Part shown: positions 31,596 through 45,996 of the stretch, one piece after another
Position numbering within the stretch: position 1 is the first letter of the stretch
Layout of the letters: every line of letters begins with the position of its first letter
NCBI RefSeq assembly: GCF_013817205.1
Contig: NZ_JACDDD010000006.1
Location: 14,282-78,281 of the forward strand
Direction of reading: 5' to 3'
DNA: 64,000 nt
Origin: Polaromonas sp.
Lineage (GTDB): Bacteria; Pseudomonadota; Gammaproteobacteria; Burkholderiales; Burkholderiaceae_C
Made by a program: the position numbers and the translations under genes
The notes under the pieces: generated by a model
Seen by the model: only the letters and a program-made list of their open reading frames with translations
Told to the model about the DNA's origin: nothing
Databases searched by the model: none

Positions 31596-31599
<4 letters not shown>
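31147..31599 (-). CDS. DsrE-family protein with Tat-like signal
   Basis: NRRMLL signal, VAYGPGI, VVACENTM, YVPAGV; ATGA overlap with gabD. Confidence 0.85.
31489..31542 (+). repeat. Family A repeat, copy 5, inside the DsrE coding sequence
   Basis: TTTTTGGC-CTGTA-GCCC-N9-GTGC-N7-GCTA-N9-GAGC; antisense reads APFLIATHAQGAGATGQK. Confidence 0.75.
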
Positions 31600-33074
<1,475 letters not shown>

Positions 33075-33189
33075 GTGAGTCTCCTGAGAAGATGGGGGAA
33101 TGGTGGGTGATTGTTGGGTTAACGGCAAAATTGCGTGCTCAGCTTTGGCAAGCCACTGTGAGAGTTAGGGGGTAATGCAAGCGACGCGG

Positions 33190-33861
33190 TCAGTTTTCGA
33201 TCACACGTCGGGCGAACCGCTCAAGGTAGTCCATCAATGCATCGGCGCCATGCATGGCCGCCTTTTCGTCGCCGGTGGCGATACCTTGGGCCAGTTCCAT
33301 GTGGTGGCGCGCACCTTCGGCAATTTCGCCTTCGTGCTGATAGGCGTACCAGAAGCGCCGGCATTGCACGACCAGCGGCACCACGCATTTGACCGCTGAA
33401 TGGTTTTGACTGGCATGGTGGTTGACCTCGTCGAGTTCATGGTCAGACCGCATGTAGTCCTCGAGGTGACCACGCGCCGCCGCCTTGACCATTTTTTCAG
33501 CACAACGAACAATCGCCTGACGCTGCGCTGCTGTTGCGCGGCGCGCAGAACATGCGGCAATGAGGCGTTCGAGTGCGCGACGCGTCTGGATCACATCCAG
33601 ATGGTCGGCCAGATCGATGTGGGAGACGAGCAGGCCGCGGCGTGGCTGCTGATCAATAAGTCCGATCGACACCATGCGCAACAGCGCTTCGCGTACCGGC
33701 GTACGACCCAGCTGGGTCAGCTCCACCAGTTCCGCCTCGACCACCGGGCTGCCCGGCTTGAGCTGCAGCGTAGAGATCAGTGCCTCGATCGCATCGTAGG
33801 CGAGATCCGCTGCGCGTCGCTTCATGGGGAAGGGTGGGCTGGGCATCGAGGGCTGTGGCAT
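33190..33861 (-). CDS. GntR (FCD) family regulator
   Basis: LGRTPVREAL, QPRRG; start uncertain (33861 or 33825). Confidence 0.9.
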   Translation of the reverse strand: MPQPSMPSPPFPMKRRAADLAYDAIEALISTLQLKPGSPVVEAELVELTQLGRTPVREALLRMVSIGLIDQQPRRGLLVSHIDLADHLDVIQTRRALERLIAACSARRATAAQRQAIVRCAEKMVKAAARGHLEDYMRSDHELDEVNHHASQNHSAVKCVVPLVVQCRRFWYAYQHEGEIAEGARHHMELAQGIATGDEKAAMHGADALMDYLERFARRVIEN

Positions 33862-34068
33862 GGTTGCGGTTGAGTTGTCGGCGTTGCAGCAGAGCTGCCA
33901 CTCACCGACCAGGCCTGTTCGCAAGAACGAGACACATACGATGAAGGTCAGGCCTTGAATGATTGTAGCGACGCCTACTGGCGACGGGGCCGCAGAAGTG
34001 TTTGATCGGCTTCCCGGTTTTGAGAATGGATTCTTTGCTCACAGTCGTGATCCGCTGGTTTCAGTGCT

Positions 34069-35349
34069 TTACTTTATGGGGTGAGGTAGTGCGAAGCTGC
34101 TGTGCGCCAGCGTGGCAATGCGTGCCGGCGAGATCGGCGTGCCTGGCGCGGGCTGTGGCCAGCCAAACAAAAACTGCGTGGCACCGCCGCAGACACGGCC
34201 CTGGCAAGCCCCCATGCCGCAGCGGCTGTGCAGCTTCGCCGCGGTCCAGCTCTCGAAGCCACACAGTTGCGCGTGGCTCACGTCTTCACAGCGGCACACC
34301 AGCGTGTCGGGCGCCGCCAGTTGTTTCAAGCCGGGATGAAGCGCGAAGCGGGTGTGCAAGCTTGTGGCGAAGGCCTCCCAGCGCTGCCGCTGGGGCCACA
34401 ACCGCCGGGCCTGATCCACTTGTCCCATGGCTGCATGGCCGGCAATGGCGCCCTGCACCAGGGCGCGTTCGCTGCCGCCGAAACCGGTGCATTCGCCGGC
34501 GGCGTAATGGTCGGGCAGACTGGTGGCTTGCCAGGCGTCTACCGCAATGGCGTGCTGCGCATTCAGGGCGCAGCCCAGCGCCTGGCCGAGTTGGGTGTTG
34601 GGAATCAGGCCGAAGCCGCAGGCCAGGCGGTCGCAAGCGACGTCCAGCGTACGCCCACCTTGCTGAAGGCGCACCGACTCCACGCGGCCCTGGCCCGAAG
34701 CGGCCACGACGTGGCTGGACAGGCGATAGCCCCGATGTATGAGCGTCAAGGCCTGCAGGGCTTTGCCGGGCCAGCGCACCAGCGAGGCGGCAAAAGCGGC
34801 CACCGCACTGACGGATGCCTGTTCGGCCACCCGCAACACCTGCGCACCGGCGGCCTGGGCCGCGGCCGCGACCGCCAGCAACAGCGGGCCGCTGCCCGCC
34901 ACCACGATGCGCTCGCCGCGCACCGGCAGGCCCCCTTTGATCAGGGCTTGCAGCCCGCCAGCACCCGTGACGCCGGGCAAGGTCCAGCCCGGAAACGGCA
35001 GCAGCAGTTCCCGCGCGCCGGTGCACACAATCAGCTTGTCATAGCCCAAGCTCCAGCCTCGATTGTCGTCTTCCAGCAGCAGCTGCCTGGGCTGCGGCAC
35101 CGCCACGATGCGGGTGCTGGACAGCAGCCGCACATTCGGGTGACTGGTCAGGGCTTCACGCCGCTGCAAAGCGGCCCGGGGCAGATGGGCGCCGGGGCCG
35201 TCGCGCCAGATCTGGCCGCCTGGGGCCGGGTTGTCGTCGATCAGCGTGATGGCCGCGCCCGTGGGGGCCGCCGCCAGTGCCGCAGCCATGCCCGCCGGGC
35301 CGGCGCCGACGATCAGCAGGTCGCAATGTTCCGGGGAAGGGGAGGTCAT
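34069..35349 (-). CDS. lhpE: FAD/NAD(P)-binding oxidoreductase, probable D-hydroxyproline dehydrogenase alpha subunit
   Basis: GAGPAG, TGARE, PGWTLPGV, VCRCEDV, CGMGACQGRVC; context. Confidence 0.75.
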   Translation of the reverse strand: MTSPSPEHCDLLIVGAGPAGMAAALAAAPTGAAITLIDDNPAPGGQIWRDGPGAHLPRAALQRREALTSHPNVRLLSSTRIVAVPQPRQLLLEDDNRGWSLGYDKLIVCTGARELLLPFPGWTLPGVTGAGGLQALIKGGLPVRGERIVVAGSGPLLLAVAAAAQAAGAQVLRVAEQASVSAVAAFAASLVRWPGKALQALTLIHRGYRLSSHVVAASGQGRVESVRLQQGGRTLDVACDRLACGFGLIPNTQLGQALGCALNAQHAIAVDAWQATSLPDHYAAGECTGFGGSERALVQGAIAGHAAMGQVDQARRLWPQRQRWEAFATSLHTRFALHPGLKQLAAPDTLVCRCEDVSHAQLCGFESWTAAKLHSRCGMGACQGRVCGGATQFLFGWPQPAPGTPISPARIATLAHSSFALPHPIK

Positions 35350-35353
35350 CAGT

Positions 35354-35620
35354 TCAGGCTCCCGCCATGGCTGCGGTCTGCACCGCCATGCCCTCGACGC
35401 ACAGCGTCTGGCAGGCCAGGCGGCGCTGACCGCTAATCAGCACCCGGCATTCCTGGCAGACACCCATGCCGCAGAACGCGGCGCGCCGCTCGCCGCTGGC
35501 GGAGATGCGCGTGATGCCGCTGCCCGCGATGGACAGCGCTGCGGCCACAGTGACACCGGCGGGCACGCGTTGTGGCTGGCCGTCAAGGCTGAATTCAATC
35601 GAACTGTTGATGTTGTTCAT
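35354..35620 (-). CDS. lhpF: 2Fe-2S protein, probable D-hydroxyproline dehydrogenase gamma subunit
   Basis: FCGMGVCQECRV...LACQT. Confidence 0.75.
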   Translation of the reverse strand: MNNINSSIEFSLDGQPQRVPAGVTVAAALSIAGSGITRISASGERRAAFCGMGVCQECRVLISGQRRLACQTLCVEGMAVQTAAMAGA

Positions 35621-36723
35621 GCGGCCATTTCGAAGCGCTGCGGCAAGTAGGGCGCTGGGTCGAGTTCTGCCCGGTGCCCGGTGATTTGTGCTGCCAGCAA
35701 GCGGGCGCTGGCGGGGGCAGTTGTTACGCCCAGGCCTTCGTGGCCCACGGCCAGCCAAAGCCCGGCGCGCTGCGGATGCGGCCCCAGCAGCGGCAGGCTG
35801 TCGGGGGTGGCGGCGCGCAGGCCGGTCCAGCAGCGGATGGCGTTGAGATCGGCCAGGGCGGGCATATAGCTCAGCGCGCGCTCCAGCATCTGCGCCAGCA
35901 TCTCGGCATCCACTTCTGGGGCGCTGTCATCAAACTGGCGAGACGAGCCGATCAGCAGTTGCCCGGTGGGGCGTGGCTGCAGGTTGAACGCCACGGAGGG
36001 CCCGGTGCAGTGGTGTGCGCTGGTGACATAGCCCAGTTCCACCAACTGGTGACGGACCTGGCCTGGGTAGCGGTCGGTGATCAGCAAATGACCCTTCTTC
36101 GGGCGTATCGGCAGCTCGGGGCACAGTTGCGTGGCATGGATGCCGTTGGCCAGCAGCACGGCGTTGGCGCCAAGCCAGTTGTTGCCGGCCAAGCGCACGC
36201 GTGAGCCGTCGATCCCCAGCACTTCGGCATGTTGCACACGGATCTGCTTCGGGTGCTGCGCCAGCAACCAGCGCGCCGCGTTGGGCGCATAGACCACGCT
36301 GTCGCCTGGCACATGCAAAGCGCCACACAGGCCGGGCCGCAGTGCAGGCTCCCAGGCCTGCAGTGTTGGCGCATCAATCAGATCGCAGCCCACATCGTGC
36401 GCGCGCAGTCGCTCCTGCTTTTCGTGAGCTGCTGTCATTTCCTCGTCGTTCGCGGCCAGCCACAGCGTGCCGCAGGGGTGCCACGCACAGTCCGCGGCCA
36501 TCGCGTCGGCCCATTGCCGCCATATGGCAAGCGAATGGCGGCTGAGTGCGAGCTCGGCGGGGTTGTCGTCCATAACCACCAGATGCCCCATGCCCGCCGC
36601 CGTGGCGCCGCCCCGGCGGTCGTCGAGCACCAGCACGTCCAGCCCGGCGCGTGCCAGCTCGTGTGCACAGGCGCTACCGACGATGCCGGCACCGATGACG
36701 ATGACATCCGCATCCATGGGCAT
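35617..36723 (-). CDS. lhpB: DadA-family FAD oxidoreductase, probable D-hydroxyproline dehydrogenase beta subunit
   Basis: GAGIVG, TAAGMGH, WTGLRAATPD, GHEGLG. Confidence 0.78.
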   Translation of the reverse strand: MPMDADVIVIGAGIVGSACAHELARAGLDVLVLDDRRGGATAAGMGHLVVMDDNPAELALSRHSLAIWRQWADAMAADCAWHPCGTLWLAANDEEMTAAHEKQERLRAHDVGCDLIDAPTLQAWEPALRPGLCGALHVPGDSVVYAPNAARWLLAQHPKQIRVQHAEVLGIDGSRVRLAGNNWLGANAVLLANGIHATQLCPELPIRPKKGHLLITDRYPGQVRHQLVELGYVTSAHHCTGPSVAFNLQPRPTGQLLIGSSRQFDDSAPEVDAEMLAQMLERALSYMPALADLNAIRCWTGLRAATPDSLPLLGPHPQRAGLWLAVGHEGLGVTTAPASARLLAAQITGHRAELDPAPYLPQRFEMAA

Positions 36724-36725
36724 GG

Positions 36726-37658
36726 TTAAAGGCGGATGCCCCATCCAAAGGGATCGTCGGCCTCGATCAGCAAGGTGGCTTCTGCGCTCATGTGGGCGCG
36801 CCCGCGCAGTGTGGGGATGATGTGCTCGCCATCGCGCTCATAGCTGGCTTCGAACTGGCTGCCGATCACGCTGGCCTGGCGCCAGATTTCTCCCGACGCG
36901 AGTTTTCCGTCGGCTGCCAGGCAGGCGATCTTGGCGCTGGTGCCGGTGCCACAGGGTGAGCGGTCGTAAGCCTTGCCAGGGCAGAGCACGAAATTACGGC
37001 TGTCGGCTATTTCATCGTCGGCGAATAATTCAATGTGATCAATCTCCGCGCCTTCGGCCCCGGTGATGCCCTGCGCCGCCAGTGCCTCGCGCAACGACCA
37101 GCTATAGGCAGTCAGTGCGTCCAGCTTATCGCTGGCCACGCGCTGTCCATGGTCACTGACGAGAAAGAACCAATTGCCGCCCCAGGCCACGTCGCCGCGC
37201 ACCGTACCGTGGCCAGGCACCTCAACCGCGACCTGGTGTCGATGCCGATAAGCCGGCACGTTGCGCACGCTGACCGAGCCGTCCCCGTGGAGCGTGGCGG
37301 TGACCGTGCCGACCGGTGTTTCGATGCGATGCTCGCCGGGCGGGATACGGCCCATATAGGCCAGCGATGCCACCAGCCCGATGGTGCCGTGCCCGCACAT
37401 TCCGAGGTAGCCGGTGTTGTTGAAGAAAATCACGCCGGCGGCATTGGTCGGGTCCACTGGCTTGCACAGCAGCGCACCCACCATCACATCGCTGCCGCGC
37501 GGCTCGAGCACCGTTGCGGCGCGCCAATCGTCGTGGCTTTGCTCCAACAGTGCACGCCGCTCGGCCATGCTGCCGGTGCCCAGGTCGGGAAAGCCGTCCA
37601 CAACCAGTCGGGTCGGTTCGCCGCCGGTGTGGGAGTCAATGATCTTGATGCGTTTCAT
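36726..37658 (-). CDS. lhpA: 4-hydroxyproline 2-epimerase (proline racemase family)
   Basis: [35 protein letters not shown]; both catalytic Cys present. Confidence 0.88.
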
Positions 37659-37800
37659 AGCGGGTCCGGGTCCTCCGTGGATGGTTCGAGCCGTGAAATC
37701 TGCAGGAAAGTACTAAAAGGAACAGAGCCACTGTCATGGCTCTTTACTGCTCTATTCCGTCAGGTCAGCGGCGCAGGAGCCGCTTCATAGCTCGGCAGCG

Positions 37801-38934
37801 TCAATAGCTCGCGAGTGGTGTTGGTACAGCGTTGCGGAAAGTGAAAACCGTGACGGGGGCCTGCTTCATATTGCCCTTTTCGTCATAGGCATAGGTGCCG
37901 GCAACGCCCTTGTAGCTTGATTTGTAGATTTCCGCGCCGACCTTGTTGGGGTCAATCGAATTGGCTTTTTGCATGGCCTCGCCAATGAACAGGGTCTGGT
38001 CGTAAAACGAAGCCGCATACGCGTCCGCGTCGAGGTTGAAACGTTTTTTGTATTTCGCCTTGAACGCGGGGCCTTCTGCAGCCTTTTCCAGGATCGAGCC
38101 GCCCTGCGCGCAAAAAACGGTGTCGTTGACGGCGTCTGCCGCCAGCTTTCCCATTTCTGGGCTGCACAGCGTGTCACCGCCCAACAACTTGGCGGGCATC
38201 GCCAACCGCTTCATTTGCCGCGTCATCGGTGCAGCTTGCGGGGCATAACCACCAAAGAAAATCACCTCTGGCTGCTTGGCTTTCAGGTTGGTCAATATGG
38301 ACGAGAAGTCAACCGATTTGTCCGTGGTGAATTCCTGCCCCACAACAGTGAGGCCCAGATTTTTGGCCTCTTTGACGAATTCTTCGGCAACCCCTTGTCC
38401 GAACGCCGTGCGGTCGTCAATCACGCCAACTTTCTTGGCCTTGAGTACGTTGGCTGCATAGGCCGCCATGCTGGCGCCAATCTGGCTGTCACCGGCAACG
38501 ATGCGGAACAGGTTTTTGTAGCCGCCCTGGGTGACTTTGGGGTTGGTGCCGACTGTGGACATCATGGTGCCACCTTCGTTATAAACCCGCGACGCGGGAA
38601 TGGCAACGCCGGAGCAGTAGGGCCCCATGACAAATTTCACACCGCTGTCCACCAGCTTCTGGGCGGCGCTGACGCCGGTTTTGGCGTCACATTGGTCATC
38701 TTCGGAGTGCAGTTCAAATTTGAGTGTCTTGCCAGCCACCACGATTTTTTTGGCATTGAGTTCTTCAATCGCCAGTCGCACGCCATTTTCATTGTCTTTC
38801 CCGGCAAACGCGTTGGCCCCTGACAGCGGGCCGGTGTGGCCAATTTTCACCACCTGTTCCTGGGCTTTCGCATTGCCTGCAAACGCAATCGCCATAACAC
38901 CAAGAAGCGGAATCATGTTCGGTTTGATTTTCAT
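37801..38934 (-). CDS. LivK/J-type ABC amino-acid substrate-binding protein (orphan)
   Basis: Signal peptide, GPLSGA, EDDQCD, GPYCSG, DDRTAFGQG. Confidence 0.9.
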   Translation of the reverse strand: MKIKPNMIPLLGVMAIAFAGNAKAQEQVVKIGHTGPLSGANAFAGKDNENGVRLAIEELNAKKIVVAGKTLKFELHSEDDQCDAKTGVSAAQKLVDSGVKFVMGPYCSGVAIPASRVYNEGGTMMSTVGTNPKVTQGGYKNLFRIVAGDSQIGASMAAYAANVLKAKKVGVIDDRTAFGQGVAEEFVKEAKNLGLTVVGQEFTTDKSVDFSSILTNLKAKQPEVIFFGGYAPQAAPMTRQMKRLAMPAKLLGGDTLCSPEMGKLAADAVNDTVFCAQGGSILEKAAEGPAFKAKYKKRFNLDADAYAASFYDQTLFIGEAMQKANSIDPNKVGAEIYKSSYKGVAGTYAYDEKGNMKQAPVTVFTFRNAVPTPLASY

Positions 38935-38986
38935 ACCTGTCTCCTAAAGTTTCGGGTAAATAAATGGGTGCCCAAAAGGGCTGTCG

Positions 38987-39205
38987 TCAGGCAACCGACT
39001 GGTATTGAGCCGGTCGTGTTGCCAGCACTTTGTTCACGAGGGGGTGCGGCCCAGCCCCTGTGCGCTCCGCCAACTCGGCCTCGACCACCGGACTCTCAGG
39101 CTCGAGTTGCAGCGTGGAGAGCAGCGCCTCGATGGCGTCGTAAGCGCCGTCGGCCGCGCGACGCTTGGGCGACGTGGTGGAAGCAGATGGAATGCGGGTG
39201 GACAT
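38987..39205 (-). pseudogene. Chimeric remnant: truncated gntR paralogue fused to the last 53 nt of a dapA-like gene
   Basis: KRRAADGAYDAIEALLSTLQLEPESPVVEAEL matches the 33190 GntR; VNKVLATRPAQYQSVA* matches the end of the 42170 gene (44/53 nt). Confidence 0.85.
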
Positions 39206-39225
39206 GAGAGGTGCGCTGGATCGGA

Positions 39226-40221
39226 TCAGAGTGAGGCGCCGACCTTGCGCAGTTCCGCGATCTGCGGCGCCTTGGGCAGCCAGAGCTTGTCGAACTCCTG
39301 GATGATCGGCGCAGGGTTGTAGCCCGAGTCGCTCTTGAAAGCGATGCCGCCCGTCTTGAATTTCTCGATCAGCCCGAGCTCGGTGGTGACAATGTCCTTG
39401 ATCTGCGCGTCGAGCGATTGCTTGACCAGATCGCGAATCAGATCCTTGTCCTTCGCGTCCAGCGTCTGCCAGATGCGGCCCGACACCAGTGGGGCGAAAG
39501 GCATGAAGAGCGCGTTCATCGGCAGTAGCACCTTCGACACCTTGTCGAAGCGCTGGTTCCACGAAAACTCGATGTCCGCCTCGAGGGCATCGACCTGGCC
39601 GTTGGCCATCGCTTCGAACACGGCGGGCGTGGGAATCGGGGTCGGCGCTGCGCCCACCAGTTGATAGAAGTCGCGGTAGACGGGCGTCGGGTTGATCCGC
39701 AGCTTCATGCCCTTGAGATCGTTGGGGCTCGAGATGTCCTTGGTCGAGAAAATCACCCGCATGCCGGTGATGCCCCAGCCCAGGCCGATGGTGCCGGTCT
39801 CGCGCGGCAGCACGTCGAGCAGCTTCAGCGCGGCCGGCGTGCGCACCAGCGATGCGACGTTGGTCGTCGAGCGCACGAGATAGGGCGCATTGATGGCAGC
39901 CACGCTCGCGACGCGCGAGCCCAGCTCGGCCGCCTGAATCCAGCCCATGTCCAGCGCGCCGGACTGCAGCTGCTGCATCATGGCCGACTCGTTGCCCAGC
40001 TGGCCCGAGTGGAACACCGTGACGCTGAGGCGGCCATTGGTGGCCTTCTTCAGCGATTCACCGAAGGCCAGCGCGGCGCGGTTCCACGAATGGCCGGCCG
40101 GCGTGATGAGGCCGAGGCGGAACTCTTTGGCCGTGGCCGCACGCGCAGTCGTGCTGAAAAGGAGTGAAGATGCGGCGGCGCCGGCCGCAGTTTGGACGAA
40201 GTGTCGGCGTGAGAGGGACAT
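39226..40221 (-). CDS. dctP: TRAP transporter substrate-binding protein with Tat-like signal
   Basis: SRRHF signal, SGQLGNE, GMKLR conserved Arg, GQVDALE. Confidence 0.9.
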   Translation of the reverse strand: MSLSRRHFVQTAAGAAASSLLFSTTARAATAKEFRLGLITPAGHSWNRAALAFGESLKKATNGRLSVTVFHSGQLGNESAMMQQLQSGALDMGWIQAAELGSRVASVAAINAPYLVRSTTNVASLVRTPAALKLLDVLPRETGTIGLGWGITGMRVIFSTKDISSPNDLKGMKLRINPTPVYRDFYQLVGAAPTPIPTPAVFEAMANGQVDALEADIEFSWNQRFDKVSKVLLPMNALFMPFAPLVSGRIWQTLDAKDKDLIRDLVKQSLDAQIKDIVTTELGLIEKFKTGGIAFKSDSGYNPAPIIQEFDKLWLPKAPQIAELRKVGASL

Positions 40222-40264
40222 GTGATGCTCCGGTTGAGGTGAAGGGACGGGGACGAGTAGATGC

Positions 40265-41530
40265 CTACTTGATGAGGGCGAGCGACAAACTCGGGAAGAT
40301 CGACAGCAGCACCAGGGCTGCGCAGCAGATGAGGAAGAAGGGCAGCGTGACCATGAACATCTTTCCGGGTTTGGCGCCGGTGACCGCAGCGGCCACGAAG
40401 AAGCTCAGGCCCACCGGCGGCGTCATCAACCCCAGCACGAGGTTGACCACCACCACCACGCCGAAGTGGCGCGGGTCGATGCCGTAGACCTCGGTTGCGA
40501 TGGGCAGCAGGATCGGCACCGTCATGATCAAACCCGGGATCCCGTCGATTACCGTGCCGATCACCAGCAGGATGACGTTTGTCAGCAGAAGAAACGTCAC
40601 CGGATCCTTCGCCACCGTCTGGATCCACGCGGCGGCGGCCTGGGGCACTTTGCCGTAGATCAGCAGCCACGAGAACACCGCCGCGGCAGCCACGAGGAAC
40701 AGCACGACCGCAGAGTAGATGGCCGACTTGAGCAGCATCTGCGGCATGGTCTTGAAACTGAACTCCTTGGTAACGTAGCGCCCGATCAGAGCCGCGGCCA
40801 GCGCGCCGACAGCAGCGGCCTCGGTCGGGTTGGCGAAGCCGGTGAGGATGGAGCCAACGATTACGATCGGAATCAACAGCGTGGGGGAGGATCTCGCGAT
40901 GGTGTGCAGCCGTTGCCTGATCGTGCGCTTCTCGGTGCGTGGGTAGTTGTAGATGTACCCCATGCACGCGATCACGACAAAGAAGAGCAGCGTGAGCACG
41001 ATGCCGGGCAGGATCCCGGCGATCAGCATGTCGCCGACCGCCACTTGCGCCAGCACGCTGTAGACCACGAACATCACCGAGGGCGGGATGATCGGGCCCA
41101 GCATGCCGCCGTACACGGTGAGCCCGGCCGCGAAGGTCTTGTCGTAGCCCTTCTTCTCCATCTCCGGCACCATGATCTGGCTCATGATCGCCACCTGCGC
41201 GGTGGCCGAACCGATGATGGACGACACCATCATGTTGGCCAGGATGTTGACGTAGGCGAGGCCGCCCTTGACCGAGCCGATGAAGGCCAGCGCCATATCG
41301 ATGAGGCGCTTGGTGATGCCGCCGCCGTTCATGATCTCGCCGATCAGGATGAACAGCGGGATGGCGATGAGACCGTAACTGTCGATGCCCGAGAACATCT
41401 GCAGCGGATACGACTGGAACAGCACCGTGTCCCCGGAGTTCAGGATGTAGACGATGCCAGCCAGGCACAGGCAGGCACCGATCGGCACCCCGACCAGCAT
41501 GATCACGAGAAAGAAGGCAGTGGTCAGCAT
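40265..41530 (-). CDS. dctM: TRAP transporter large permease
   Basis: AIPLFILIGEIM, LGPIIPPS, MTPPVG. Confidence 0.93.
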   Translation of the reverse strand: MLTTAFFLVIMLVGVPIGACLCLAGIVYILNSGDTVLFQSYPLQMFSGIDSYGLIAIPLFILIGEIMNGGGITKRLIDMALAFIGSVKGGLAYVNILANMMVSSIIGSATAQVAIMSQIMVPEMEKKGYDKTFAAGLTVYGGMLGPIIPPSVMFVVYSVLAQVAVGDMLIAGILPGIVLTLLFFVVIACMGYIYNYPRTEKRTIRQRLHTIARSSPTLLIPIVIVGSILTGFANPTEAAAVGALAAALIGRYVTKEFSFKTMPQMLLKSAIYSAVVLFLVAAAAVFSWLLIYGKVPQAAAAWIQTVAKDPVTFLLLTNVILLVIGTVIDGIPGLIMTVPILLPIATEVYGIDPRHFGVVVVVNLVLGLMTPPVGLSFFVAAAVTGAKPGKMFMVTLPFFLICCAALVLLSIFPSLSLALIK

Positions 41531-41531
41531 G

Positions 41532-42131
41532 TCAGTTCACCCTGTCGGCGTTGAGCACATGGAACTCGTGGTGCACTCGCCTGGGCTGCAATCCGAGGTC
41601 TTCGACCAGGTTGGACAGGGCATGCGCGCTGAGGGTCAGCGAGAAGATCGGCAAGATCAGCTGCACGACCCACATGGGCCAGTTCAGCGTCTGCGTGGTT
41701 TCGGTGTAGATGAAGTTGAAGGACTCGGCCGCGTAGCCCTTCGCGTCGAAGCCGTGGCTCGCGATCCCCACCGGATCCATCCAGATCCAGCACATCGCCA
41801 GCAGGCCCAAGCCGAGCAGCAGCACGACGCCCGAGGCGCAGGCCTTGACCACCGCCGCCGCTGTGGGGTTGAGCTTGTCAGTCAGCAGCGTCACGGCAAA
41901 GTCCAGCCGCAGCCGGGTCATCGCCGAGGCGCCGATGAAGGAGAGCCAGACCACAGAGTACACCGATGCCTCGTCCACCCAGTAGATGGGAATGCCCGAG
42001 TAGCGCGTGACCACGTTGAACAGGATCAGCGCCACGAGCAGGCCCATCAGCCCGGTGAGCAGATGGCGCTCGCAGAAAAGGATCCAGTCCGAAGCGTCGA
42101 GCACTCGGCGGGCGATGGCATTGTTTTTCAT
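41532..42131 (-). CDS. dctQ: TRAP transporter small permease
   Basis: VVTRY...WVDEASVY...WLSFIGA. Confidence 0.88.
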   Translation of the reverse strand: MKNNAIARRVLDASDWILFCERHLLTGLMGLLVALILFNVVTRYSGIPIYWVDEASVYSVVWLSFIGASAMTRLRLDFAVTLLTDKLNPTAAAVVKACASGVVLLLGLGLLAMCWIWMDPVGIASHGFDAKGYAAESFNFIYTETTQTLNWPMWVVQLILPIFSLTLSAHALSNLVEDLGLQPRRVHHEFHVLNADRVN

Positions 42132-42169
42132 GGCGTGCTTGTGGCCTTGTGGCGCGGACTGCGGCTGGA

Positions 42170-43084
42170 TCAGGCGACCGACTGGTACTGAATTGGCCGT
42201 GTCGCCAGTGCTTTGTTCACGATCGTTTCAATGGCTTCGCGCTCCGCGCCTATCAGCGGCAGGCGCGGGCGGCGCATGTGCTCGGTGCTGACACCGGCCA
42301 ATACGTCGATCAATTTGAGGTTTTGCACCAGCTTGGTGGAGACATCCAGGTGCAGCATGGGCGTCATCCACTGGTAGAGCTTGAGAGCCTCGGCGAATTT
42401 GCCGGCCTTCATCAGGTCATACAGCGCAACGGTTTCGCGCGGAAAGGTGCAGCCAACCCCGGCGAGCAGGCCGTCGCAGCCAAGCGCCAGGCCTTCATAG
42501 GCCAGGTCATCCACACCCAGAAAAAGCTGGTAGCGATCACCCAGCAGGTTGCGCAAATCGGTGATGCGGCGGATGTTGTCCGTGCTTTCCTTGATGGCGA
42601 CGATCCATTCGCAGTCGGCCAGCTCGGCCATGTGTTCGGGCTTGAGATCCACGCGGTAGGCGACTGGGTTGTTGTAGACCATGATCGGTTTTTTAGCGGC
42701 TTCCGCCATGGTGCGCACGTTCAGCATCGCCTCGCGCGCGTCGGCCACATAAATCACCGAGGGCATTACCATGAAACCGTCCACGCCGAGTTCGTTGGCG
42801 CCAAGGATGTAGCGCAGCGCTTCGCGGGTGCTGGTTTCAGAGACGTTGGCGAGTACCGGGACGCGGCCTTGGGTCGCCTTGATGGCGATGTCGGCAACCT
42901 GGAGCTTTTCTTCCAGTGTCAAGGTGCTGGCCTCACCCAGCGATCCGCAGGTGACGAGGCCGTGAATCCCGTTGCGGATCTGGAAATCGATGTGCTTGGC
43001 CGTGCCTTCGGCATCGATGCTCTCGTCGGCGTGGAATTTAGTGGTGATCGCGGGAAAAATTCCCTGCCAGCGTGGGTTGGTCAT
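42170..43084 (-). CDS. lhpC: DapA-family enzyme, probable 1-pyrroline-4-hydroxy-2-carboxylate deaminase
   Basis: GIFPAITT, GSLGE, MVYNNP, IKES Schiff-base Lys; context. Confidence 0.8.
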   Translation of the reverse strand: MTNPRWQGIFPAITTKFHADESIDAEGTAKHIDFQIRNGIHGLVTCGSLGEASTLTLEEKLQVADIAIKATQGRVPVLANVSETSTREALRYILGANELGVDGFMVMPSVIYVADAREAMLNVRTMAEAAKKPIMVYNNPVAYRVDLKPEHMAELADCEWIVAIKESTDNIRRITDLRNLLGDRYQLFLGVDDLAYEGLALGCDGLLAGVGCTFPRETVALYDLMKAGKFAEALKLYQWMTPMLHLDVSTKLVQNLKLIDVLAGVSTEHMRRPRLPLIGAEREAIETIVNKALATRPIQYQSVA

Positions 43085-43130
43085 GAGGTTGCTCTTTCTG
43101 TAATGAGGTTTGGAAGGGTTTGTTTGGTAG

Positions 43131-43165
43131 ATATTAATATATTAATAAGATATTTGCAATATCTT
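43131..43165 (-). promoter_or_regulatory. sigma70 promoter of the hydroxyproline operon overlapped by two palindromes
   Basis: Minus strand TTGCAA-N17-TAATAT; AAGATATT-N3-AATATCTT and TATTAATATATTAATA. Confidence 0.65.
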
Positions 43166-43371
43166 TATTGGGTATTCGGCAGTTTCCTGATTCGCCGTTT
43201 TGGTGTATTCGTGTGCCGGGTTACGGCCGCGGGCGCTTGTCGGCTACAAAGCAGCCTGCGCGCGAGGTCTTGCCTCCGACGTGGTGCGCCGTGGGGCCAG
43301 GGCGCAAAACCTATAATCGATTGTTCAAATAAATCAAGCAGTTAGCGCGATGGCGCGCCCTTTTCCACACC

Positions 43372-45996
43372 ATGAATCAACCCACCTTCACCGTCGCCGA
43401 TATCCGCAAAAGTTTCCTGGACTTTTTTGCATCCAAGGGCCACACCGTGGTGGCGTCCAGCTCGCTGGTGCCGGGTAATGATCCGACCTTGATGTTCACC
43501 AACTCGGGCATGGTGCAGTTCAAGGATGTGTTTCTAGGCAACGACAAACGCCCGTATGTGCGCGCCGCCTCGGTGCAGGCCTGCCTGCGTGCTGGCGGCA
43601 AACACAACGACCTGGAAAACGTGGGCTACACCGCGCGCCACCACACCTTTTTTGAGATGCTGGGCAACTGGAGCTTTGGCGACTATTTCAAGCGTGAATC
43701 GCTGAAGTGGGCCTGGGAGCTGTTGACCGAGGTTTACAAGCTGCCGCCCGAGCGCCTGCTGGCCACCGTGTACGAAGAGGACGACGAGGCCTACGACATC
43801 TGGACCAAAGAAATCGGCCTGCCGCCTGAGCGCGTGATCCGCATCGGCGACAACAAGGGCGGCCGCTACAAGTCCGACAACTTCTGGATGATGGCCGACA
43901 CCGGCCCCTGCGGCCCCTGCAGCGAAATTTTTTATGACCACGGCGACCACATCCCCGGCGGCCCGCCGGGTAGCCCAGATGAAGATGGCGACCGCTTCAT
44001 TGAAATCTGGAACAACGTGTTCATGCAGTTCGACATGGCGGCTGACGGTAGCGTCACCAAACTGCCAGCGCCTTGCGTGGACACCGGCATGGGGCTGGAG
44101 CGTCTGGCTGCCATCTTGCAGCACGTGCACAGCAACTATGAGATCGACATCTTTGCAGAGTTGATCAAGGCGGCATCACGCGAGACCGGCGAAAAAGACC
44201 TGGGCAACAAGAGCCTGTTCGTGATTGCCGATCACATTAGGGCCACAGCCTTTTTGGTGAGTGACGGCGTCAACCCGTCCAACGAAGGCCGCGGCTACGT
44301 ACAGCGCCGCATCATCCGCCGCGCGATTCGCCATGGCTACAAGCTTGGAAAAAAGACGCCGTTCTTCCACAAGCTGGTGGCCGATCTGGTCAAGCTGATG
44401 GGCGACGCCTATCCGCGCTTGAAGTCTGATGAAAAGCGCATCACCGAAGTCCTGCGGGTTGAAGAAGAGCGCTTTTTTGAGACGCTGGAAATCGGTATGA
44501 CGATTTTGGACGCAGCCCTTGTGGGTGATGCCAAAGTGTTGCCCGGCGACGTGGCATTCAAGTTGCACGACACCTATGGCTTTCCACTTGATCTGTCGGC
44601 CGATGTCTGCCGCGAGCGTGGGCTGGAGGTTGACGAGGCAGGCTTTCATGCTGCCATGGACAAACAGAAAAATCAGGCGCGCGCTGCAGGCAAGTTCAAG
44701 ATGGATCGCGCGCTGGAGTATTCAGGTGAAGGTCATGCGTTCACCGGCTACGAGCTGCTCGAAGAGCCTGCCAAGGTAGTGGCCTTGTACGCCGACGGTG
44801 TGGCCGTGCAAAGCCTGAATGCAGGGCAGAGCGGGGTCGTGGTTCTGAGCACCACCCCGTTTTATGCCGAGAGCGGTGGCCAAATCGGAGATCAGGGGCG
44901 TTTGACGGCATCCGGTGCAAGTTTTGCGGTGGATGACACTCTGAAAATCAAGGCCGACGTGTTTGGTCATCACGGCACGCAGCAAGAGGGAGTGCTCAAG
45001 GTAGGCGATACAGTCACGGCGCAAGTCAACACCGCTGTGCGCGCGGCCACGGTGCGCAACCACAGCGCCACCCATTTGATGCACAAGGCCTTGCGCGAAG
45101 TGCTCGGTGATCACGTTCAGCAAAAGGGCAGCCTGGTCAATGCCGAGCGCACCCGATTTGACTTTGCACACAACGCGCCGGTGACGGATGCGCAGATTCG
45201 CGAGATTGAGGCACGTGTCAACGCGGAAATTTTGTCCAACGTGGCCACCGATGCGAGCGAAATGGACATGGAGTCTGCGCAAAAGAGCGGCGCCATGATG
45301 CTGTTTGGCGAGAAGTATGGCGACAAGGTGCGTGTGCTCAGCATAGGCTCCAGCAAGGAGCTGTGCGGCGGTACCCACGTCGGACGCACCGGCGACATTG
45401 GCCTGTTCAAGATCGTTGCAGAGAGCGGTGTGGCCGCCGGCGTGCGCCGCGTGGAAGCTGTAACGGGTGACAACGCGTTGGCCTACGTGCAGGAGCTCGA
45501 AGCGCTCAGCGCAGCGATGAGTGGCTACCTTAAGGCCTCGCGAGGCGAACACTTGAGCCGTGTCGCGCAAGTGTTGGACCAAGTCCGCACGCTGGAAAAA
45601 GAAGTGGCCGCGCTCAAGGGCAAGCTGGCTTCGTCACAGGGTGATGAATTGATGTCGCAAGCAGTCGACATCAAGGGTCTCAAAGTTCTGGCTGCGAAGC
45701 TGGAAGGCGCTGACGCCAGGACCCTGCGCGAGACCATGGACAAACTGAAAGACAAGCTCAAGACGGCTGTCATCGTGCTGGCCGCGGTGGACGGAGACAA
45801 GGTGCAAATCGCAGCCGGTGTGACAGCCGACAGCGTGGGCAAGGTCAAGGCCGGAGAACTGGTCAACTTTGTGGCGCAACAAGTCGGCGGCAAGGGTGGC
45901 GGCAAAGCCGACATGGCCATGGCCGGCGGTACAGACGCTTCCCGCTTGCCAGCTGCGCTGCAGTCGGTACAAGCTTGGGTGGCCGAGCGGGCGTGA
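43372..45996 (+). CDS. alaS: Alanine--tRNA ligase
   Basis: [47 protein letters not shown]. Confidence 0.98.

Follow-up and report, generated by a model that had tools for sequence, protein, structure and literature searches.

The hydroxyproline locus and its scar

The window analysed here is a 64,000-nt stretch of a Polaromonas sp. genome (NCBI RefSeq assembly GCF_013817205.1, contig NZ_JACDDD010000006.1, positions 14,282 to 78,281). It contains a hydroxyproline locus, one long row of genes on the minus strand that is divergent from alaS. In this row the genes of a tripartite ATP-independent periplasmic (TRAP) transporter, dctQMP, stand between a dapA-like gene and a livK-like gene. The 291-nt interval between dctP and livK (39225-38935, minus strand) holds a piece of a gntR gene and a piece of a dapA gene, and we refer to it as the scar. 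At the scar, two modules meet that relatives carry intact in separate layouts: a T-type layout, with dctQMP and gntR after dapA, and an L-type layout, with livK and the catabolic genes after dapA. Related loci are designated by L and a number, and the features of the locus are as follows.

43372..45996, plus strand: alaS, the divergent left flank of both parental layouts; alaS is also adjacent to dapA in L028, L029, L033, L110, L118, L120 and Acidovorax loci.
42170..43084, minus strand: intact dapA-like gene (Pfam PF00701, E = 9e-53); its last 53 nt are copy c1.
42132..42169, minus strand: dapA-dctQ spacer, T-type, collinear with L110 (34/38) and alignable with Variovorax dapA-dctQ spacers.
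42131-41532, minus strand: dctQ (Pfam DctQ; G+C content at third codon positions, GC3, 90%).
41530-40265, minus strand: dctM (Pfam DctM; GC3 91%).
40221-39226, minus strand: dctP (Pfam DctP; GC3 87%).
39040..39225, minus strand: dctP-gntR spacer (20 nt) and 5' fragment of gntR (166 nt, ATG at 39205), called gntR' below.
38987..39039, minus strand: copy c2, the final 53 nt (with stop codon) left from a second dapA-like gene; runs on into the L-type spacer and livK, as it does in L028, L118, L119 and L120.
38935..38986, minus strand: dapA-livK spacer, L-type, with the livK ribosome-binding site; alignable with L028, L027, L119 and L120.
34069..38934, minus strand: L-type module (Pfam, NCBIfam), collinear with L028 at 87.3%, comprising the next five genes.
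38934-37801, minus strand: livK-like binding protein.
37658-36726, minus strand: 4-hydroxyproline epimerase, hypE (NF010577, 558.7 bits against an equivalog cut-off of 442).
36744-35617, minus strand: dhpB, D-hydroxyproline dehydrogenase-like subunit.
35620-35354, minus strand: small 2Fe-2S subunit, D-hydroxyproline dehydrogenase-like, annotated as Fer2_4 in L107.
35349-34069, minus strand: dhpA, D-hydroxyproline dehydrogenase-like subunit.
33861-33190, minus strand: intact GntR/FCD regulator (Pfam/NCBIfam; 96% amino acid identity to L110).
33128-31596, minus strand: aldehyde dehydrogenase of the KGSADH/SSADH type (Pfam/NCBIfam; 95% amino acid identity to L110).

Anatomy of the scar and of the joint

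Read along the minus strand, the scar runs through the 20-nt spacer, the ATG at 39205, 166 nt of homology to the 5' part of gntR, 53 nt of a dapA 3' end and a 52-nt spacer that leads into livK. The gntR piece (39205-39040) matches the 5' part of the intact gntR (33861-33190) over a 127-nt local alignment with an indel, at ~79% identity. After frame correction, 35 of 42 amino acids are identical in the translations, as the first-pass annotation had counted for this second gntR fragment. The 53-nt piece (39039-38987) matches the 3' end of the dapA-like gene (42222-42170) at 44 of 53 positions, gap-free and with the stop codon included, so the copy described in that annotation was recovered as well. 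When the interval was searched against its own 3.77-Mb genome, the intact gntR (E = 4e-18) and the dapA 3' end (E = 1e-8) were the sole matches besides the interval itself.

Positions 39040 and 39039 flank the joint, which links position +165 of gntR to position -53 of dapA, two sequences that are otherwise unrelated. The first-pass annotation had placed it at about 39035-39038, at a CGTG regarded as possible microhomology. Compared with the closest TRAP-linked gntR, that of L111, the joint is blunt: CACCCCC is followed by GTGCGCGAA in L111 and by TCGTGAAC in the window. Compared with L017, up to 6 nt (CGTGAA) could overlap, only given extra indels. The CGTG would thus be mere similarity near the joint, and the length of any microhomology would be 0-6 nt, depending on the parental sequence.

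The GGGG run of the gntR piece (39055-39058) exceeds by one base its counterpart in the intact copy, L110, L111, L117, L092 and L017, six gntR homologues in all, which bears out the extra G noticed in the first reading. Without the extra G, the gntR' frame would end at a TGA created at the joint (CCC TCG TGA). Its presence carries gntR' into the native dapA frame and gives a 72-codon chimeric open reading frame (ORF) over the 219 nt of 38987-39205. A 72-amino-acid gene is annotated at the scar in two other assemblies. The chimeric ORF had no match in Pfam or NCBIfam and is probably meaningless.

The whole scar is spanned by three independently assembled contigs at 99.97-100% identity (Logan SRR11719873, GCA_030856895.1 and GCA_030154745.1), and no repeat at the joint could have led an assembler astray. 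Since three independent assemblies share the junction and no common repeat lies at the joint, misassembly was ruled out and the junction exists in the DNA. A search for the exact junction in JGI metagenome contigs gave no match.

Two parental layouts among relatives

About 115 related loci were inspected, with up to 10 kb of flank each. The L-type layout, alaS/dapA-livK-hypE-dhpBGA-(ABC genes)-gntR-KGSADH, where ABC stands for ATP-binding cassette, is carried by the Polaromonas metagenome-assembled genome (MAG) LC052 (L028), by OV174 (L027), by the metagenomic contigs L118, L119 and L120 and by many Variovorax. The T-type layout, alaS/dapA-dctQMP-gntR-KGSADH, was found in full in L110 (contig JAWVHH010017285.1), and the Variovorax MAG L092 has dapA-dctQMP-gntR. 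Thus, both layouts begin with alaS-dapA and end with gntR-KGSADH, the right flank that corresponds to 31596..33861 in the window.

BLASTN alignment of the window to L110 is unbroken and collinear, from inside alaS as far as 39041 next to the joint (91.8%). The alignment to L092 extends from 43185 to 39041 (83%). Downstream, the alignments to L028, L118 and L120 begin at 39039 and continue through livK and beyond at 86-87%. Because the T-type alignments end at 39041 and the L-type alignments begin at 39039, the scar is the seam of a T-type left half and an L-type right half. Both gene orders that the first-pass annotation had set against each other, dapA-livK and dapA-dctQMP-gntR, therefore exist intact in relatives, with alignments that abut at 39040. 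The spacing between dctP and gntR is 20 nt in every T-type relative, the same as in the stub of the window, and the dapA-dctQ spacer of the window is unrelated to its dapA-livK spacer. From these alignments, two allelic versions of the alaS-linked hydroxyproline locus appear to circulate among Polaromonas-like Comamonadaceae, and the window would be a recombinant of the two.

None of the ~115 related loci contained two dapA-like genes or complete clusters in tandem, and no second cluster or second copy of the scar was found in the window's own genome. In Variovorax genomes with both cluster types, the two are widely separated or lie on separate contigs (NBRC 15149, at 0.65 and 5.09 Mb; LT1R20; GB1P17; KBW07).

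In Polaromonas sp. OV174, two contigs break inside the dapA-like gene, NZ_FOKZ01000003.1 (L027:1-900) and NZ_FOKZ01000019.1 (L030:10006-10905), and share there an overlap of 900 nt (100% identity); alaS is absent from the upstream contig. This overlap is either an exact repeat of the gene, with one dapA allele at two loci, or an assembly quirk.

One locus of another genus (L017, genome G165) has the gene order of the window, alaS..dapA-dctQMP-livK-hypE-dhpBA..gntR. No scar remnant was found in L017, whose dctP-livK spacer is a clean 44 nt. Since L017 has this order without a scar, the TRAP-before-livK order arose or was tidied more than once.

The two dapA ends are different alleles

The relic c2 was compared with the intact end c1 through L-type relatives. 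L120, which has an empty site, shows two differences to c2 (51/53) and seven to c1. The corresponding numbers are four and nine for L119, which is identical to c2 in the last 33 nt, and five and six for L028. L118 has the reverse pattern, with nine differences to c2 and four to c1. The differences between c1 and c2 are spread along the segment, with four in the first 28 nt and five in the last 25 nt. Over these last 25 nt the relic equals L120 exactly, and c1 has variants of the TRAP-linked or L118 type.

An in-place duplication of the 53 nt predicts less change in c1, which is under selection, than in a neutral relic. The opposite was seen, which supports a two-parent origin, and the comparison with L120 and L118 ruled out such a duplication. 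The allele difference also argues against a duplication like that of a target site and against an internal rearrangement of one cluster. The end of c1 (~20 nt, with G at -18 and C at -6) was considered as a signature of the donor and dropped, since the L-type L118 shares these variants.

No transposase or integrase ORFs were present between alaS and KGSADH, according to the ORF list and Pfam. An insertion of the transposon or integron type was rejected because such ORFs are lacking, the scar interval is unique in the genome and the 53-nt repeat is allelic rather than a target duplication.

Origin of the TRAP block and of gntR'

The first-pass annotation proposed GC3 as a check on 39226-42131, and the TRAP genes proved to be compositional outliers. 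Their GC3 of 87-91% compares with a genome mean of 78.3 (SD 4.5; 1,373 long ORFs), and dctM is the single highest of these. Among the neighbours, dapA has 78% and alaS 74%. Two genes are low for this genome, livK (67%) and the intact gntR (69%), with the 5th percentile at 70.

A dctP orthologue (E <= 1e-100) was found in 0 of 203 other Polaromonas species genomes. Among the species genomes searched, the best matches within the family were G165 (91%) and Variovorax paradoxus (89%). A large protein collection gave closer ones, L110 at 96% and L111 and L117 at 92%.

The synonymous divergence (dS) between the window and L110 was calculated gene by gene. It is 0.48 for alaS, 0.49 for dapA, 0.53 for the intact gntR and 0.50 for KGSADH, and only 0.12 for dctQ, 0.15 for dctM and 0.14 for dctP. 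Against other relatives, the dS of the TRAP genes is about 0.6-0.8 of the dapA rate. Because the TRAP rate is reduced only to this extent elsewhere, slower evolution fails to explain the 3-4-fold gap seen with L110. The TRAP block would have been exchanged more recently than its flanks.

Over its 125-nt core, gntR' shares 82-83% identity with the TRAP-linked gntRs of L111, L117 and L017, and 76-77% with the intact gntR of the window and with the gntR of L110. Being closer to the TRAP-linked genes, gntR' is the TRAP module's own regulator and not a copy of the resident gntR. The foreign composition of the TRAP genes, their rarity in the genus, their low dS and the affinity of gntR' are why TRAP plus gntR' is favoured as the incoming piece. 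It is from these observations that we infer which half was resident, and that TRAP entered an L-type genome rather than the reverse.

The mosaic gntR of L110

L110 has a gntR (L110:4464-5155) that is mosaic. Over the leader and first ~15 codons it agrees with the relic of the window at 64 of 74 positions (86%). The rest matches the intact gntR of the window at 114 of 125 (91%), compared with 96 of 125 for the relic, and the switch point is AAGCGNCGCGC. L110 could have arisen when a TRAP cassette replaced L-type genes by double homologous recombination, the right crossover lying in gntR, or by a deletion between the two gntR copies of a scar-bearing ancestor. On either route, the same pieces would have recombined repeatedly in this group.

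This leads to a tentative suggestion, which we regard as possible but doubtful. The gntR' stub may act as a second homology arm, so that the segment from the dapA 3' end through dctQMP to gntR' moves into other L-type Polaromonas by double homologous recombination, with L110 as a possible product. The TRAP genes of L110 are, relative to the window, 3-4 times younger (dS ~0.13) than their flanks (dS ~0.5). If the suggestion is true, a foreign transporter became, through one rare illegitimate event, a cassette free to recombine across the genus.

Search for the homologous crossover in dapA

The first-pass annotation expected a mosaic signal in dapA. Segments of 75-150 nt were scanned against ~105 homologues, including L028, L029, L027, L110, L118 and L120, and no breakpoint was detected in the gene, which is uniformly ~9-10% diverged from L028, L110 and L120. 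Over the whole gene, the nucleotide identity is 90.8% to L028 and L120, 89.9% to L110 and 83% to L092, again uniform. No breakpoint was seen in the comparable 300 nt of the alaS 5' end either. The homologous crossover may lie upstream of or outside dapA, or in its last ~25 nt, or it may be undetectable with comparators that are ~10% divergent. The proximate parent that carried TRAP would already have had a dapA of the Polaromonas type, as L110 does, which points to a close relative and not a distant genus.

In comparisons with L028 and L120, the dS of the hydroxyproline genes is 0.28-0.74 (dapA 0.41-0.45) and that of alaS is 0.93-1.06. Within the cluster, dS to these two relatives varies ~2.5-fold from gene to gene. 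Values so far below that of alaS, together with the spread within the cluster, suggest repeated homologous exchange of cluster segments among Polaromonas species.

How the scar may have formed

Homology-facilitated illegitimate recombination (HFIR) joins incoming DNA by one homologous end and one illegitimate end, the latter usually with 3-10 bp of microhomology, and recipient DNA is usually deleted (PMC3240628). Experiments have shown it in Acinetobacter baylyi, Streptococcus pneumoniae and Pseudomonas stutzeri; in E. coli conjugation it occurred at very low frequency (PMC3240628). The account that we favour, and which we judge to be an even call, is a one-step event of this kind on an L-type chromosome, with TRAP incoming. 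DNA of a T-type relative would have paired homologously with the L-type chromosome on the left, in or upstream of dapA. The other end, ~165 nt into the T-type gntR, would have been attached by an illegitimate joint to the resident dapA, 53 nt short of the stop codon of that gene. In this way dctQMP would have been gained, no L-type gene lost and a gntR'::'dapA scar left behind, in which the +1 G would have been acquired later. The first-pass annotation had already proposed one homologous and one illegitimate crossover. The two-module junction and the distinct alleles stand behind that model, but the crossover in dapA that it called for was not seen.

The window resembles HFIR products in having one shared homologous flank, one non-homologous joint inside coding sequence and a few kb of added genes; its joint sits in GC-rich sequence, where the similarity amounts to a few bases at most. 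It differs in that the recipient kept all its DNA and 53 nt occur twice, the crossover is not located and the event is reconstructed from a natural genome. That it was a single step, HFIR in a broad sense, and by what route the DNA entered are matters that we infer. Homologues of ComEC and DprA are present in the genome, but the same families match 10-11 of 14 control genomes, including non-transformable ones, and are thus uninformative about natural transformation, with which the first-pass annotation had thought the event compatible.

Several observations weigh against the one-step account. No breakpoint is visible in dapA or in the compared part of alaS, so the homologous crossover is assumed rather than observed. 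The joint is blunt relative to L111, the closest T-type gntR, leaving microhomology unproven. The loss of recipient DNA expected of HFIR did not occur: compared with L-type relatives, all genes from dapA to dhpA are kept and 53 nt are duplicated. Without such a deletion, HFIR would require that the joint lay within the stretch homologous to the anchor. The product is also symmetrical, as an L-type fragment that enters a T-type genome with a crossover in gntR-KGSADH gives the same sequence. Finally, the closest comparators are only ~90% identical to the window.

The end product is alike for the one-step route and for two others. One of these is a route that the first-pass annotation had named as its alternative, deletion between tandem clusters. 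A tandem arrangement, alaS/dapA-dctQMP-gntR-KGSADH-dapA-livK-..., could form, for example, by single-crossover integration of a circularised fragment, and an illegitimate deletion from gntR +165 to dapA -53 would then give exactly the observed sequence. In E. coli conjugation, recircularised DNA integrated by a single crossover far more often than HFIR occurred (PMC3240628), and several Variovorax genomes do contain the two cluster types, distant from each other or on separate contigs. Set against this are the absence of tandem dapA-like genes from all ~115 loci, the lack of a second copy in the window's own genome and the need for one more rare event than in the one-step model; we consider this route unlikely. 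The other is an integration of the Campbell type, in which a circle closed by end-joining (dapA -53 to gntR +165) integrates by a single crossover within the 53-nt dapA segment and duplicates it. This would explain why the 53 nt occur twice as direct repeats that flank the insert, and the 4/5 split of the c1-c2 differences and the identity of c2 to L120 over the last 25 nt fit a crossover near position 28. Duplications of this kind dominated the E. coli experiments (PMC3240628). But 53 nt is very short for RecA-dependent integration, and there are too few informative sites to separate this route from HFIR, both halves of both copies being Polaromonas-like. We give it a slim chance.

The symmetry of the product also allows the reverse direction, in which a resident T-type genome, like L110, received an L-type segment ('dapA-livK-hypE-dhpBGA-gntR...), with the right crossover in gntR-KGSADH and the illegitimate joint on the left. 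T-type L110 is as close to the window in alaS, dapA, gntR and KGSADH (dS ~0.5) as any L-type relative, and the unusually low GC3 values of livK and gntR are on this side. The relic should then resemble an L110-like resident gntR, but its 125-nt core is 77% identical to L110 and 82-83% to other TRAP-linked gntRs. Moreover, the gntR of L110 is a mosaic of T-type and resident sequence, so L110 is a derived state, and it is the TRAP genes, not the L-type genes, that are missing from the rest of the genus and compositionally extreme. The reverse direction is therefore distinctly unlikely in our judgement. An internal origin would begin with a single cluster of the Acidovorax type (dapA-livK-hypE-dhpBGA-dctQMP-gntR), an order that exists in L013, L016, L023, L090, L093, L095, L099 and L106. 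Tandem duplication of this order would create a gntR'::'dapA joint, and two reciprocal deletions would have to follow, making three events. The 53-nt copies and the gntR pieces are different alleles, by which this origin is strongly disfavoured; in addition, free-standing T-type clusters have a homologous dapA-dctQ spacer, and the TRAP genes differ from the rest of the operon in composition and dS. We regard it as very improbable.

Comparison with known relics and significance

HFIR has been invoked for natural displacements that leave relics at Vibrio type VI secretion system (T6SS) and Rhs loci (PMC5361080). Like the effector-immunity relic arrays of the Vibrio cholerae T6SS and the orphan 3' ends of Rhs genes, the window shows an incoming module with upstream homology and a 3' stub left downstream. 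It differs from them in that the locus is a catabolic operon with no conflict system and nothing functional was orphaned, and in that the stub is only 53 nt long and fused to the stub of the incoming regulator.

The scar is real and precisely placed, and it is a new instance of a known process that calls for no new mechanism. Illegitimate transfer joints are well studied in the laboratory and are rarely caught in wild genomes with both parental arrangements identifiable. Here the joint is fixed to within one base, layouts of the donor type and of the recipient type are both sampled, and L110 adds a third that shows the outcome of homologous recombination on the same pieces. The locus could be used in teaching and to benchmark breakpoint-detection methods, and predictions about hydroxyproline uptake that can be tested follow from it.

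Predicted function of the composite operon

Bacterial breakdown of L-hydroxyproline, as known from work on Pseudomonas and Azospirillum, proceeds through 4-hydroxyproline epimerase, D-hydroxyproline dehydrogenase, a DHDPS-like pyrroline-4-hydroxy-2-carboxylate (Pyr4H2C) deaminase and KGSA dehydrogenase. The L-type half of the window and its flanks match this gene content, with profile matches to DAO, Fer2_4, Pyr_redox_2, DHDPS and the Aldedh/SSADH subfamily. The locus thus has the gene content of an L-hydroxyproline catabolic operon, its enzymes being predicted ones. The dapA-like protein scored 168 bits with TIGR00674, below the 206-bit cut-off, which places it in the DHDPS family and below the level of a true DapA; by context, the gene is of the Pyr4H2C deaminase type.

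In contrast to known L-hydroxyproline clusters, the operon has two kinds of uptake genes, an orphan binding protein of the LivK type and a complete TRAP transporter. In the nearest L-type relatives, L028 and L120, livGF-livK2-livHM (two ATPases, a second binding protein and two permeases; L120:15926-20672) lies between dhpA and gntR. The corresponding spacer of the window (33925-34068) measures only ~145 nt. Because the LIV-type ABC genes are not in this spacer, livK is orphaned and TRAP is the operon's only complete transporter. The composite operon would amount to a swap of uptake systems, judging from its genes. It takes its place in a series in which this operon swaps or stacks uptake systems, with a LIV-type ABC transporter in relatives, an orphan LivK plus TRAP in the window and TRAP only in L110. 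The nearest solved homologue of DctP is 4PAF, together with 4PAI and 4PBH (E = 1e-71).

A scan of 38700-43500 found no promoter-like or terminator-like signals on the coding strand of the scar, and livK has a ribosome-binding site to itself in the L-type spacer. The scar itself is probably functionless, transcribed on the same strand as inert filler of the operon. Upstream of the operon, the intergenic region between alaS and dapA (43085-43371) is 72% identical to that of L110, with gaps, and the genes on either side are ~90% identical. This region, probably the operator and promoter of the operon, either changes rapidly or was replaced.

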